Source: Gammaproteobacteria bacterium (GTDB taxonomy: Bacteria > Pseudomonadota > Gammaproteobacteria > Eutrophobiales > Eutrophobiaceae). Taken from it: a stretch of 64,000 nt of DNA. Under the pieces are notes generated by a model that was not told the origin of the DNA, ran no database searches, and worked only from the letters and a program-made list of their open reading frames with translations. Each line of letters starts with the position of its first letter. The first letter of the stretch is position 1. A program made the translations under genes and the position numbers. Shown one piece after another: positions 28,797 through 35,137 of this stretch. The stretch spans positions 7,192-71,191 of the forward strand of contig JANQJZ010000005.1 of NCBI GenBank assembly GCA_028281365.1. Reading direction: 5' to 3'.

Positions 28797-29554
28797 ATAT
28801 TTATGCAATTAAAGCAATCTATCTTTTTGAGATGGCCCGGACCGCTAGAACACTAATGCAAAGTATCGCATCCCCCGTGCTATCAACCTCTCTCTATTTT
28901 GTTGTTTTTGGTGCAGCGATTGGATCACGTATGGGTGAGATCGACGGTATCAGTTACGGCGCATTTATTATTCCCGGTTTGATCATGTTGTCATTATTAA
29001 ATGAAAGTATTTCCAATGCCTCATTCGCTATCTACATGCCAAAATTTACCGGTACCATTTACGAAGTATTGTCTGCCCCGTTATCGTATATTGAAATCCT
29101 GATCGGCTATGTTGGCGCGGCCGCAACGAAATCAGTAATACTGGGGATTCTAATCTTGTTTACAGCGCGTTTATTTGTTGACTACGAAATTGCACATCCA
29201 TTATATATGTTGGGCTTTCTTATATTAACGGCCCTGACGTTCAGTTTGTTTGGTTTTATTCTTGGTGTTTGGGCAGACAGTTTTGAAAAACTTCAAATCG
29301 TACCGATGATGATCGTCACGCCATTAACATTTCTTGGTGGCAGCTTTTATTCAATTAACATGTTGCCGCCACTATGGCAAAAGATAACCCTGTTTAATCC
29401 GGTTGTATATCTAATCAGTGGTTTTCGTTGGAGCTTTTATGGTATTGCCGATGTTAATGTCATACTGAGTCTAGGCATGATTACATTATTCATGTTGATT
29501 TGTTTAACCACAGTATGGTGGATATTTAAAACCGGCTATCAATTAAAGGCCTGA
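28793..29554 (+). CDS. yadH: ABC-2 type transporter permease (YadH-like)
   Basis: 253 aa, 6-TM. 4-nt overlap with the ATPase gene. Confidence 0.82.
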
Positions 29555-29560
29555 TAACAC

Positions 29561-30007
29561 TTATTGATCCGGTACCTCTCCATACGGATACTTGTACGAA
29601 CCATAGCGAATAACGAGAATCGAAAATGCCAGGATCAAAACAGCAGCTGATATATAGATGATCCCGAGATCAGCAACATGGTTATTTTGAATATTACCAA
29701 GCAACATTCTTGTTAATGCTGTAATACCAACATAAATTAAAAATCGAACCGGCATATGATTAGTTTTAAAATAAATACCGACCATCGACAGTAATTCAAG
29801 ATAGATAAATAACAACAAAATATCTTCAATAGTGATATGACCATTAATGATCATACCGATAAATTCCGAGATGCCAGACCAGACAATGGCTGCACCAATA
29901 GCAAACAGAGTCAGATAGTGGGCACCATCAACCAGAAACCCACCAAAGTGATCGACATTACCTTTTAAAGGATTAGCTTGTTGTTCGCTAAGGCTGTTAT
30001 CAGTCAT
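29561..30007 (-). CDS. psiE: phosphate-starvation-inducible protein PsiE family
   Basis: 148 aa, 4-TM. Conserved ...LLLFIYLELLSMVGIYFKTNHMPVRFLIYVGITALTR... Confidence 0.8.
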   Translation of the reverse strand: MTDNSLSEQQANPLKGNVDHFGGFLVDGAHYLTLFAIGAAIVWSGISEFIGMIINGHITIEDILLLFIYLELLSMVGIYFKTNHMPVRFLIYVGITALTRMLLGNIQNNHVADLGIIYISAAVLILAFSILVIRYGSYKYPYGEVPDQ

Positions 30008-30033
30008 CGAGCTCCCCCATTTACTTTTCTCCT

Positions 30034-30062
30034 AATGTATCTCTGTTTCCGGATAATGACAA
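30034..30062 (-). promoter_or_regulatory. putative psiE promoter (TTGTCA-17-TACATT) with Pho-box-like direct repeats over the -35
   Basis: The minus strand reads TTGTCATTATCCGGAAAC...TACATT. Half-sites TTGTCAT (6/7) and CGGAAAC (5/7) against the Pho-box repeat CTGTCAT. A GGGGGAG SD precedes the ATG. Confidence 0.35.
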
Positions 30063-30120
30063 TGTCTATAAATTACTTTGTTTATGTTGCTTAAATTCCT
30101 AATTTTGCTAGATTTAGCCT

Positions 30121-31011
30121 ATGGATAATAAAGCTAAGAATGGTACGGTGTCTGAGGTAGAGGGAAAGGAATGCATTTTTTATGACGGTCACTGGATTCG
30201 TCATTACCAATCGAACACCAATACGCTTGTCGATAAGAAGAAAATGATCGACCAGCTAACGCGCAGGGTCTTTCATAATGTTGAACCAGGTATAAATACA
30301 CCAGGGTACCGTGTAGAAGAAATTCGACAGATCTTTGAACAGGAAACTAATCCGGCCAAGAAGCGGGTCAAAGGCGCAATGCTGGCTGGTGCACTGCTGA
30401 ATCGCGGTCGTGATATCCTGAATGCCATCGTTGAGCTTGAGGAAGCCGGCGTTAAAATCGAAACAAATAACGAATTACTTGAGCGGTGTGGTAAGTGTTT
30501 TGTCGAGGCTCTGGTACTTGGCGAAAATATCAAGTTGGCCAATGGAGATGAATCCGTGGCTGAACTCTGGGGAGAGCCATTCAGGGTGTTTTCTCTTCCA
30601 ATTGAGGAATTCTTTGAAAGTCGATATATCAAGATTGCACAAACCATGACCGAGATCGATCAGGTTACAGAAATAATGTTGACGGTCATTGACAAATCGC
30701 CAATTTTTGCTGACGCGAAAGATAAAACAATTGAACTAAGCAAGGCTTCAAAATTAGCTTGTGAAACACTGCGTAGTGATCCGGTCATATTCGAGGTTTG
30801 GCCACGTTATGTTGTTGCCAAGGAGTCGTTTGAAGCATTCAAGCCAAACATCGATAGCATTGCTGAAAATGGTCAACGACTTATTTATAAAGAAGGTTAT
30901 GAACTGATCAGGGAAGGCGGTTCTTTGTTGACCATGATGTCAAGTTTACGCATACCAATAGAAGATAGTGTTAAAAGCTATATCGATAAATGTAAGGAAT
31001 ACTCTGTATAA
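30121..31011 (+). CDS. hypothetical protein (no recognisable family)
   Basis: 296-aa uninterrupted ORF, predicted soluble and largely helical. Divergent from psiE. Confidence 0.6.
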   Translation: MDNKAKNGTVSEVEGKECIFYDGHWIRHYQSNTNTLVDKKKMIDQLTRRVFHNVEPGINTPGYRVEEIRQIFEQETNPAKKRVKGAMLAGALLNRGRDILNAIVELEEAGVKIETNNELLERCGKCFVEALVLGENIKLANGDESVAELWGEPFRVFSLPIEEFFESRYIKIAQTMTEIDQVTEIMLTVIDKSPIFADAKDKTIELSKASKLACETLRSDPVIFEVWPRYVVAKESFEAFKPNIDSIAENGQRLIYKEGYELIREGGSLLTMMSSLRIPIEDSVKSYIDKCKEYSV

Positions 31012-33625: not shown

Positions 33626-33792
33626 AAGAAGCGTGAATAATTCCTTCGTGAAAACAAGGTTTCAATGCTACACAACATGATCAGGGTCGGCAATGAGTGG
33701 TTTGAATAGCGTGAACATAAATATGGTAAGAGATGTAAAACGCATTTGAATATTATTAATTCAAGAAATAAATCGATACTGAGCCTATTGAT

Positions 33793-34620
33793 TCAATCCT
33801 CTAGTTCATAAACCCTTTCTAATATATTATCTTCTACTTCTTTTACACCTTTAGGTGATATGAATATCACTTCATCGCTATTGTCGTATTCTATGAATCT
33901 GTCATCATGAAGAGGTTTTATAACAGATCTTTTAAACATTGACAGGTTTGAGTGTTCCACCCAATTAAAAAGATCTTCTATTAAAATTCCGTTATCTAAT
34001 TCAGAGTAAGCTAACAATAAAGCTTTCTGTTTAAAATTTAAATCTGTTCGTAAAATTCTCTTTTTACCTGCAACATTCCAAATGTCTGGAATATTTCTAG
34101 TTGCTAATATATCAACTAATGTCTGTGCTTCTTCTAAAGGAAGCTTGTAATATATTCTTATTAATTCACTTATTACCCAATCACAGTTTCTAATAATTGT
34201 TGCTAAGTCTATTTCGTTAGCTTCAATATCACCGCCTACATGACCAATACCTCTTTTTCCTCTTAATGTATAAAGAAATACAAGTGCTCTCGGAATAATA
34301 ATTCTAAGACTCTCATTTCCAGAGGATTTAGGTAAAATGATTAATTTTCTACATTCATCTGGAAAATTATTTATGTTTGATCCAAAAGGTATAAAAGTTC
34401 CCGTTAACTCCTGTTGTAAAAAACGTAATACAGATTCACAAAATTTTCCTGCGCTTAATCCAGCCGCATCATAAGAAGAATCATACTGGGCTTCTTTATA
34501 TCTATTTTTCAACTCTAGATATGAAGATATGACTTTATCTCGAAATTTTTTCGGAATGTCAGTTAATGCAGAATCTAAAAGTTGACTATGTTTTTGTGTA
34601 TTCGTATTGACCTTCGTCAT
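33793..34620 (-). CDS. hypothetical protein: HEPN-like helical domain (Rx6H) plus C-terminal winged-helix-like domain
   Basis: 275-aa ORF in a 28-32% GC islet. LRGKRGIGH (R120...H127, nt 34240..34263) in a helix-rich context. C-terminal ~80 aa has a wHTH-like pattern. Overlaps the upstream ORF by 35 nt. Confidence 0.6.
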   Translation of the reverse strand: MTKVNTNTQKHSQLLDSALTDIPKKFRDKVISSYLELKNRYKEAQYDSSYDAAGLSAGKFCESVLRFLQQELTGTFIPFGSNINNFPDECRKLIILPKSSGNESLRIIIPRALVFLYTLRGKRGIGHVGGDIEANEIDLATIIRNCDWVISELIRIYYKLPLEEAQTLVDILATRNIPDIWNVAGKKRILRTDLNFKQKALLLAYSELDNGILIEDLFNWVEHSNLSMFKRSVIKPLHDDRFIEYDNSDEVIFISPKGVKEVEDNILERVYELED

Positions 34621-35038
34621 TTTCGTTTCTGCTTAGCTTTTCTGCTCTTAATGCCCGTCCTAGAGATGGGGATAACTCGTTTGTTGTATAAGTGAAAGCT
34701 TTTTTGCTTTGGCAATGATCTTTAATGTCTTTAGTTGTTTTTGGGGTGTTGAAAAAGCCAGCAGTTATTAACTCATCTATCATTGCTCCAGGCCCAGGTC
34801 TACCAGCCACTTTTCGTTTAGCCTTCTTTTTACCAGTTTTTTTATTCTTTTTCTTGTTTGTTTTTTTTATGGGGTTTTTTAGTGGCTCTTCTTCGGGCTC
34901 TTCTTCAGTTTGAACAGATGGCCTCATTTTGAAAACTAACTCTACAATTTTTAGTTGAACAGCTTCCGATTTAAAAGAATTTACAATTTCAGCAAGTTCT
35001 TTTAGCTCTTGTTTTAATTCCTTAAAATTTTCAATCAT
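34586..35038 (-). CDS. hypothetical protein: coiled-coil N-terminus, acidic patch, lysine-rich tract, small C-terminal domain
   Basis: 150 aa from the ATG at 35038, which has a good SD (AAAGGGGAATTTATTATG). The ORF-track TTG at 35080 lies in the rpoH terminator T-tract. Contains EEEPEEEP then KKTNKKKNKKTGKKKAKRK. Confidence 0.55.
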   Translation of the reverse strand: MIENFKELKQELKELAEIVNSFKSEAVQLKIVELVFKMRPSVQTEEEPEEEPLKNPIKKTNKKKNKKTGKKKAKRKVAGRPGPGAMIDELITAGFFNTPKTTKDIKDHCQSKKAFTYTTNELSPSLGRALRAEKLSRNENDEGQYEYTKT

Positions 35039-35074
35039 AATAAATTCCCCTTTGTTAAAAGACTTTACTGTTAT

Positions 35075-35101
35075 CAACAAAAACGGCCCCGAAGGACCGT
35101 T
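35075..35101 (-). terminator. rho-independent terminator of rpoH
   Basis: The minus strand reads AACGGTCC-TTCG-GGGCCGTT followed by TTTGTTG. GC-rich stem with one G:U and a TTCG tetraloop, 37 nt after the rpoH stop. Also T-rich on the plus side. Confidence 0.8.
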
Positions 35102-35137
35102 TGTTGTTTTCGTTTTTCATCATCCTTGATACCTCGT

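Follow-up and report, generated by a model that had tools for sequence, protein, structure and literature searches.

The rpoH gene on a contig (JANQJZ010000005.1) of an uncultured gammaproteobacterium is separated from a neighbouring CNNM gene by a short AT-rich islet with two overlapping genes, which raises the question of what kind of system this islet encodes and how it came to lie there. We analyzed the islet within a stretch of 64 kb, referred to below as the window; positions are those of the window, and the features of the islet lie on its minus strand. The upstream gene A (34586..35038) encodes a protein of 150 amino acids (aa) and the downstream gene B (33793..34620) a protein of 275 aa, and the start of B overlaps the stop of A by 35 nucleotides (nt; 34586..34620). 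The original prediction had drawn these two open reading frames (ORFs) with their overlap and had taken the islet for an acquired two-gene module, possibly with a HEPN-type toxin, and it is supported in these points as far as the sequence allows. Based on homologous loci and AlphaFold2 models, we propose that the islet is probably a horizontally acquired, self-contained conflict module of the toxin-antitoxin (TA) or abortive-infection (Abi) type, in which B, consisting of a HEPN-like domain and a winged helix, would be the RNase (ribonuclease) effector or toxin, and A the antitoxin or regulator. B represents a previously unannotated and widespread HEPN family with an unusual architecture, an N-terminal HEPN domain followed by a winged helix, and none of the named systems compared below has an equivalent of its obligate and modular winged-helix partner.

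The two genes belong together in other genomes as well. We examined 18 bacterial loci with a close relative of B, which correspond to about 12 independent genomic contexts besides the window, and found an A-type gene upstream of B in all 18 of them. In the loci with called genes the overlap between A and B is 17-44 nt, and the 35-nt overlap in the window is consistent with translational coupling. The divergence of the A winged helix tracks the divergence of B (Mantel r = 0.74, p = 1e-4; Spearman 0.36, p = 0.0014), the Pearson value of the Mantel test being partly due to three close pairs. B is the more conserved protein of the two (62% against 46% for A). Such co-divergence is compatible with toxin neutralization and operon autoregulation by A, without being proof of them.

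In one of these loci (L005, from Bryobacterales), an IS630-type transposase gene with DDE_3 and HTH_23/HTH_32 domains is located exactly at the junction of A and B (L005:4842-5927, minus strand). The A-type gene ends there at about 4826 and B runs from about 6001, so that the genes are approximately 1.2 kb apart and the native start of B is replaced. This copy looks like a disrupted module.

Gene B has 752 homologs in a collection of 5.8 billion proteins, the best of them 60-67% identical and all of them approximately 265-275 aa long, and an exhaustive profile search groups the family into 1184 clusters at 50% identity. Wherever the source names these proteins, they are called "hypothetical". 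Searches of Pfam, NCBIfam, PADLOC and PHROGs returned no match to A or B at E <10 save noise, in agreement with the original prediction that the pair is not a named system. The PADLOC-DB 2.0 models likewise match neither protein; among the wider B family, matches are confined to a CARF model and reflect similarity of the C-terminal winged helix only, and a link of the family to CARF proteins was therefore discarded.

By definition, HEPN domains possess a four-helix core with frequent inserts between helices 2 and 3, an Rx4-6H motif whose arginine is directly followed by a polar residue (N, D or H), and a conserved acidic residue in helix 2, usually within Ex3[K/R] (PMC3710099). The N-terminal domain of B (residues ~20-172; 34105..34563) conforms to this definition in its predicted four-helix topology with an insert, in the placement of its R-x6-H motif and in its helix-2 acidic residue. 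In the AlphaFold2 model (pLDDT, the predicted local distance difference test score, 87.6), helices 1 to 4 span residues 24-47, 51-73, 103-121 and 132-158, an extra helix follows at 162-172, and the insert between helices 2 and 3 (residues 74-102) contains a short helix. The motif R120-x6-H127 (RGKRGIGH), already pointed out by the original prediction, maps to 34263..34240 (34240..34263 in forward order); R120 is the penultimate residue of helix 3, and H127 lies in the following loop. The second HEPN signature, E62-x3-R66 (ESVLR; 34423..34437), is located in helix 2. We assessed the conservation of these residues in an alignment of 95 family members that are 27-50% identical to the window protein. 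R120 is present in 93 of 95 members and H127 in all 95, with an R-H spacing of six in 92; E62 is found in 95/95 and the complete E-x3-R in 65/95. R123 is likewise present in 95/95 members, and E62, R123, H127 and D138 are invariant. The residue after R120 is asparagine in 87 and serine in 7 of the 95 members of this wide family. The R-x6-H motif forms the invariant core of a large family of proteins.

Among Pfam families, Abi_C (PF14355) gives the sole recurrent signal in the B family. It weakly matches 8 of the 95 members, and the consensus of the N-terminal domain matches it with E = 0.0043 and 17.6 bits, aligned exactly on the motif; the window protein itself has no match to PF14355 at E <10. 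The family also has the same R-H spacing as SadR, an Abi_C protein whose RNase motif is backed by mutants, and Foldseek recovers the HEPN protein TT1696 (1ufb), although with a poor E-value. From these sequence signatures and the predicted model we conclude that the N-terminal domain of B is most plausibly a divergent HEPN domain that is nearest to the Abi_C branch and falls outside PF14355 as now defined.

The last approximately 80 aa of B had been predicted to look like a winged helix, and the model agrees: residues 176-254 (33859..34095) form a winged helix-turn-helix domain, followed by a C-terminal helix (256-273), with Foldseek matches to MepR, MarR, BpsR and PefR at a probability of 0.99-1.0. 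A also ends in a winged helix; a common origin of the two is unsupported (hhalign probability 1.7%).

Gene A has 29 homologs at 35-48% identity, and its AlphaFold2 model has a mean pLDDT of 80. The original prediction had described A as a lysine-rich coiled-coil protein with a compact C-terminal domain. The compact domain exists, but the coiled-coil description has to be replaced, as the model shows a hairpin of two helices that a basic disordered linker connects to a winged helix. The hairpin (residues 5-38; 34925..35026), with helices at 5-20 and 25-38, carries the motif NSFKSEAVQLK, in which N20, F22, S24, E25, V27, Q28 and L29 are near-invariant among homologs; it is specific to the short form of the partner. 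The disordered linker (residues 41-78; 34805..34918; pLDDT <50) consists of the acidic patch EEEPEEEP (net charge -6) and a subsequent lysine-rich tract (net charge +14), and its sequence varies among homologs yet is basic throughout. The winged helix-turn-helix domain (residues 83-149; 34592..34792), which is constant in all forms of the partner, is modelled with a pLDDT >95 and an H-H-H-strand-strand topology, and its Foldseek matches are of the generic PadR, Fur, MarR and linker-histone types. The acidic patch is encoded by a perfect 12-nt tandem duplication (34884..34906; GGCTCTTCTTCG twice on the plus strand), which suggests recent slippage in the linker of A.

The partner of B is modular: the basic linker and the winged helix are constant, and the N-terminus occurs in three forms. 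The short hairpin form is found in the window and in L006-8, L011, L101 and L103. In L001, L003 and L009, the partner starts with a double zinc ribbon (CPxC...CxxC twice; Pfam DZR, E = 7e-7) and has approximately 200 further residues without a family match ahead of the shared basic linker and winged helix; these long genes are located at L001:4839-5990, L003:4902-6023 and L009:6122-7201. The third form occurs in L002, L004 and L005, and its copies in L002 and L004 are approximately 300 aa long and have no Pfam match.

A longer call for gene A is possible from a TTG codon at 35080, within the rpoH terminator hairpin, which would add 35039..35080 to the ORF. We rejected this start as spurious, because the homologs all begin at the methionine of MI[EK]NF. 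These N-termini, together with the Shine-Dalgarno sequence AAGGGG (35047..35052) 8 nt ahead of the ATG at 35038, identify this ATG as the real start of A.

The composition of the islet sets it apart from its surroundings. It begins at the intrinsic terminator of rpoH (35081..35102), which had been predicted and is indeed present as a stem-loop (35102..35081) with a 9-bp stem (five G-C pairs), a 4-nt loop and a T-run. The GC content drops just downstream of this terminator and stays at approximately 0.30 over 33700-34600, as compared with 0.42-0.52 in the flanks (300-nt windows). On the other side, the islet is bounded by an AT-rich spacer downstream of B (33626..33792), which contains a promoter-like site for the CNNM gene (TTGAAA-17-AATTAT; 33665..33637). 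The span of A and B has a GC content of 0.321, the minimum among all 1246-nt windows of the 64 kb (mean 0.412, standard deviation 0.027, z = -3.4). The GC content at third codon positions is 0.19 in B and 0.27 in A versus 0.39-0.53 in rpoH, CNNM and ftsXEY. The low GC content, originally estimated by hand, is thus borne out by computation. As had also been reported, there is no integrase, transposase, minimal nucleotidyltransferase (MNT) gene or flanking direct repeat in or beside the islet, and we found no tRNA gene, tandem array or Rfam match there either.

The distribution of the pair points in the same direction as its composition. Relatives of B are found in Gammaproteobacteria, Binatia, Nitrospirales, Fibrella (Bacteroidota), Acidobacteriota and Bryobacterales, and in 16 of the 18 loci from other hosts the GC content of the pair lies 7-15 points under that of its flanks. 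In the 80 rpoH loci and four CNNM loci examined we did not find the pair, which makes its location behind rpoH a peculiarity of this genome. The original prediction had proposed comparing the interval between rpoH and CNNM in related genomes; the comparison covered these loci, among which the nearest rpoH in the metagenome set is 68% identical and the CNNM relatives are approximately 85% identical. The nearest named relatives of the window CNNM protein belong to Pseudohongiella (65%). The genes upstream of CNNM in its four relatives with approximately 85% identity (L012-L015) all differ, being those of an SBF transporter, an aldo-keto reductase, an aminotransferase and an MCP; the order of genes next to CNNM thus shifts within this lineage, and conclusions from synteny about the insertion site are limited accordingly. 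Taken together, the lowest GC content of the window, the GC-poor pairs of other hosts and the absence from the rpoH and CNNM loci argue that the islet was acquired.

The original prediction had proposed to check whether the two genes co-occur elsewhere and in defence islands. The pair does recur in other genomes, often beside mobile elements or defence genes. In L003, it is located between a tyrosine integrase with an HTH_17 protein (Xis) on one side and AbiEii on the other; L004 has a TIR_2 protein as a neighbour, and L002 and L009 have insertion sequence (IS) transposases. L097 possesses a PemK toxin-antitoxin pair, and its sister strain L098 an island with Eco57I/XamI restriction-modification (RM) genes, a KAP NTPase and AAA_15-DUF4276. 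In L101, an HpaII RM system and Vsr are found upstream and Fic downstream, and in L006-8, a HEPN-MNT pair lies 2 kb from the module. A patchy distribution together with an atypical composition and neighbours from defence systems or mobile elements, as seen in this family, is characteristic of mobile or defence cargo. A phage or plasmid origin of the module was considered and rejected, there being no phage record, no IMG/VR contig and a single distant archaeal plasmid match. The sister strains L097 and L098 have the same B protein (P0059) and share synteny around the pair, and they differ just upstream of it: the block of RM, KAP and AAA_15/DUF4276 genes of L098 is found where L097 has catalase and LysR. 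The PemK toxin gene located downstream in L097 was not called in L098. This difference marks a hypervariable defence hotspot beside the module.

The archaeal relative just mentioned is encoded on plasmid PL131 of Natronomonas pharaonis (WP_011324391.1, L096:4953-5825) and is annotated as "hypothetical protein". It is 27% identical to the HEPN domain of B and retains the motif as IRNNRDSVH as well as the helix-2 glutamate, and its C-terminal half differs. There is no co-directional A-type gene upstream of it, and an ISH6-like transposase gene is found nearby.

RNase activity and toxicity of B, its neutralization by A and a role of the pair in phage defence are what we infer from these features. 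Metal-independent RNase activity that relies on the arginine and histidine of the motif is a trait of HEPN RNases. B would be the effector, with a divergent HEPN domain most like those of the Abi_C/AbiJ/SadR branch and a subsequent winged helix; it may dimerize like other HEPN RNases and cut RNA with R120 and H127, to which E62, R123 and D138 may contribute. A, encoded upstream and presumably translationally coupled to B, would be its cognate partner. The constant part of A, the basic disordered linker and the winged helix, may bind B and/or nucleic acid, and this binding would hold the RNase inactive and probably also lead to repression of the operon, while the variable N-terminal module may set the stability of the partner or its sensitivity to a trigger. 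Loss or displacement of A would free B, and the resulting cleavage of cellular RNA would arrest growth. This toxin-antitoxin logic fits the gene order, the overlap, the relative evolutionary rates and the genomic contexts.

Several observations weigh against this two-gene conflict module. No profile match of the B family reaches a curated threshold, the Abi_C score of 17.6 bits being below the gathering cut-off of 24, and searches of the PDB with three sequence profiles gave no meaningful match to A or B. The structural matches to HEPN proteins are weak as well: TT1696 (1ufb) was recovered by Foldseek with a probability of 0.90, but at rank 34 and with E = 0.29. The glycine-rich motif loop (residues 122-131) is modelled with low confidence (pLDDT 56), and in the window protein and its close clade R120 is invariably followed by glycine (G121) in place of a polar residue. 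The strongly basic character of the A linker contrasts with the acidic segments by which many RNase antitoxins mimic RNA. With respect to context, an integrase, IS, RM, Abi, TA, TIR or Fic gene lies within a few kb in 8 of the 12 independent contexts, which is a raw count without a background rate, and the remaining 4 of 12 have no defence or mobile neighbours; such neighbours are missing in L011, L099/100, L103 and the window. Finally, no member of the B family was found in GenBank phage records or IMG/VR contigs, nothing informative was found in BFVD, and the family is nearly absent from plasmids, where the distant archaeal protein is its only representative.

Among known systems, type II TA pairs such as PemIK and MazEF resemble the module in gene organization: it is bicistronic and overlapping, the small component with a DNA-binding domain, here a winged helix, comes first and evolves faster than the larger effector gene, and the cassette has a patchy phyletic distribution and an atypical GC content. 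Unlike in these systems, the disordered linker of A is basic (+14), the N-terminal domains of A are exchangeable and comprise up to approximately 250 extra residues, B is a two-domain HEPN-winged-helix protein, and neutralization and autoregulation by A are proposals. The HEPN-MNT pairs of types II/VII (PF05168 with PF01909/PF18765) are likewise translationally coupled two-gene systems with a HEPN toxin that are widespread, mobile and often found in defence islands. However, A is a winged-helix protein and not an MNT, with no nucleotidyltransferase match in Pfam, and B has no PF05168 match and carries a winged helix of its own.

The closest experimental precedent for the proposed partnership of A and B is, by analogy, the retron type IX (Retron-Kva2), in which the HEPN protein alone is toxic and a co-expressed winged-helix protein attenuates its toxicity by blocking the active site; reverse transcriptase and multicopy single-stranded DNA are also required there. 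Both systems pair a HEPN nuclease, putative in the case of B, with a separate winged-helix protein. They differ in that the HEPN protein of Kva2 lacks the canonical Rx4-6H motif that B retains, and in that its winged-helix partner has two alpha-beta HEPN-binding domains, whereas A consists of a hairpin, a basic linker and a winged helix. We detected no similarity between the two systems in sequence, no reverse transcriptase or non-coding RNA was found in the window or the related loci scanned, and a retron reverse transcriptase in particular is missing among the window neighbours, the Pfam-labelled loci and the scanned neighbours in L002-L005.

A further group to be compared comprises the Abi_C proteins, lactococcal AbiJ and SadR. 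SadR from S. aureus is an Abi_C protein that acts as an RNase and as a defence factor against phages and plasmids, and mutants in the R, N and H residues of its motif RNEYGDAH lose both activities. The B family shares with this group the R-polar-x5-H spacing (RNKRGVGH in the family and RGKRGIGH in the window), five residues being the commonest spacer, as well as helical HEPN cores, contexts with defence genes and mobile elements, and variable accessory N-terminal modules. In contrast, Abi_C domains are found at the C-terminus of one-gene systems whose sensors are AbiJ-NTDs, whereas the HEPN domain of B is N-terminal and followed by a winged helix, and a separate gene for a partner protein lies upstream of B in each of the bacterial loci that we examined. 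The B family additionally possesses the invariant R123 and D138 and a glycine-rich loop, scores below the Pfam gathering threshold and has no PADLOC match.

The likeness to AbiJ bears directly on an alternative that we regard as rather unlikely, namely that the pair is an anti-phage sensor-effector system with an AbiJ-like architecture split over two polypeptides. According to it, the exchangeable N-terminal modules of A would each read a different invader cue, the histone-H1-like part formed by linker and winged helix would bind invading nucleic acid and clamp the HEPN-winged-helix dimer onto it, and the trigger would switch on the Abi_C-type RNase, so that A activates B. The swaps of the partner N-terminus between a hairpin, a double zinc ribbon with extra domains and a third form, at a constant linker and winged helix, speak for it, as they parallel the variation of AbiJ-NTD1-5 fused to Abi_C HEPN domains (PMC3710099); so do the RM, AbiE, TIR and KAP/AAA_15 genes among the neighbours and the +14 linker, which suits nucleic-acid binding better than RNA mimicry. 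On the other hand, a small gene that is upstream, overlapping and faster-evolving is the classical antitoxin arrangement, and neither copies in phages or viruses nor an anti-defence context were observed. It should be noted that activation of B and its release from A are not distinguishable in silico. Since the basic linker and the swappable N-termini fit a simple RNA-mimicking antitoxin less well, the TA or Abi-type module favoured here leaves room for a sensor role of A similar to the AbiJ-NTD variation.

We consider it quite improbable that the pair is non-toxic and serves regulation or the handling of nucleic acids, with B as a winged-helix transcription factor whose HEPN-like domain binds a ligand (compare the inactive MtlR), A as a histone-H1-like co-factor, and the cassette regulating or compacting mobile-element DNA. 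Winged helices are indeed present in both proteins, A resembles linker histones in its winged helix and lysine-rich tail, the glycine-rich RGxGHxGG loop could bind phosphate, and the approximately 62% identity of B across phyla is unusually high for a toxin. Non-catalytic HEPN members also exist, but Rx4-6H is fully or partly lost in the families treated as such, the nucleotidyltransferase fusions and part of MtlR (PMC3710099), whereas R120, H127 and E62 are kept in 93-95 of the 95 B proteins. Furthermore, no conserved target genes are found alongside the pair, and conflict modules typically take the form of such a stand-alone, promiscuously transferred, low-GC cassette beside TA and RM genes. 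A coincidental HEPN resemblance, with another all-helical fold (Fic/Doc-like or PCI-like) and an unrelated activity in the N-terminal domain of B, is highly improbable: over its full length, B is matched best in Foldseek by PCI and Fic proteins whose C-terminus is a winged helix (9efq, 4rgl, 7cb8), and no HEPN profile scores above threshold, but these matches have a root-mean-square deviation of 14-23 A and a probability of 0.2-0.57, indicating shared architecture and not fold, B lacks the Fic motif HxFx[DE]GNxRxxR, so that the Fic and PCI readings were rejected, and three independent HEPN signatures occupy the right structural positions. Both the regulatory role and the coincidence are disfavoured by the fact that R, H and E are almost absolutely conserved at these positions.

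With respect to expression of the presumed conflict module, we found no sigma-70-like promoter between the rpoH terminator and gene A, as the original prediction had stated. The distance from the T-run of the terminator to the ATG of A is approximately 42 nt, and the spacer upstream of the pair is longer in other hosts (57-417 nt). Read-through of A and B from rpoH is possible. Elsewhere in the window, a second and milder GC dip (0.35-0.36) was observed at 29500..30100, upstream of a 296-aa ORF (30121..31011) without family assignment; the ORFs that follow it resemble, as labelled by eye only, a GST-like protein, a small Cys-rich DksA/TraR-type zinc-finger protein and a GNAT-like protein.

Cas13, Csm6 and many Abi systems and TA pairs use HEPN RNases as their effectors. 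Conflict modules with HEPN domains are common, and each new HEPN branch brought new regulatory logic and sometimes a new tool. The B family spans at least five bacterial phyla and reaches Archaea, and its members were missed by Pfam, NCBIfam, PADLOC and PHROGs and consequently annotated as "hypothetical protein"; recognizing it would improve the annotation of the defence and TA content of environmental genomes. If A and B were a split sensor-effector pair, they would represent a new defence family of wide occurrence, with at least 1184 clusters at 50% identity in many phyla, and a new mode of HEPN control through a basic winged-helix protein. In the organism studied here, the location right behind the rpoH terminator and the lack of a detected promoter of its own make it conceivable that expression of the module is coupled to the heat-shock sigma gene. 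With its 1.25 kb, the module is a compact system in which to study how a HEPN nuclease may be controlled by a basic winged-helix partner whose N-termini are exchangeable.

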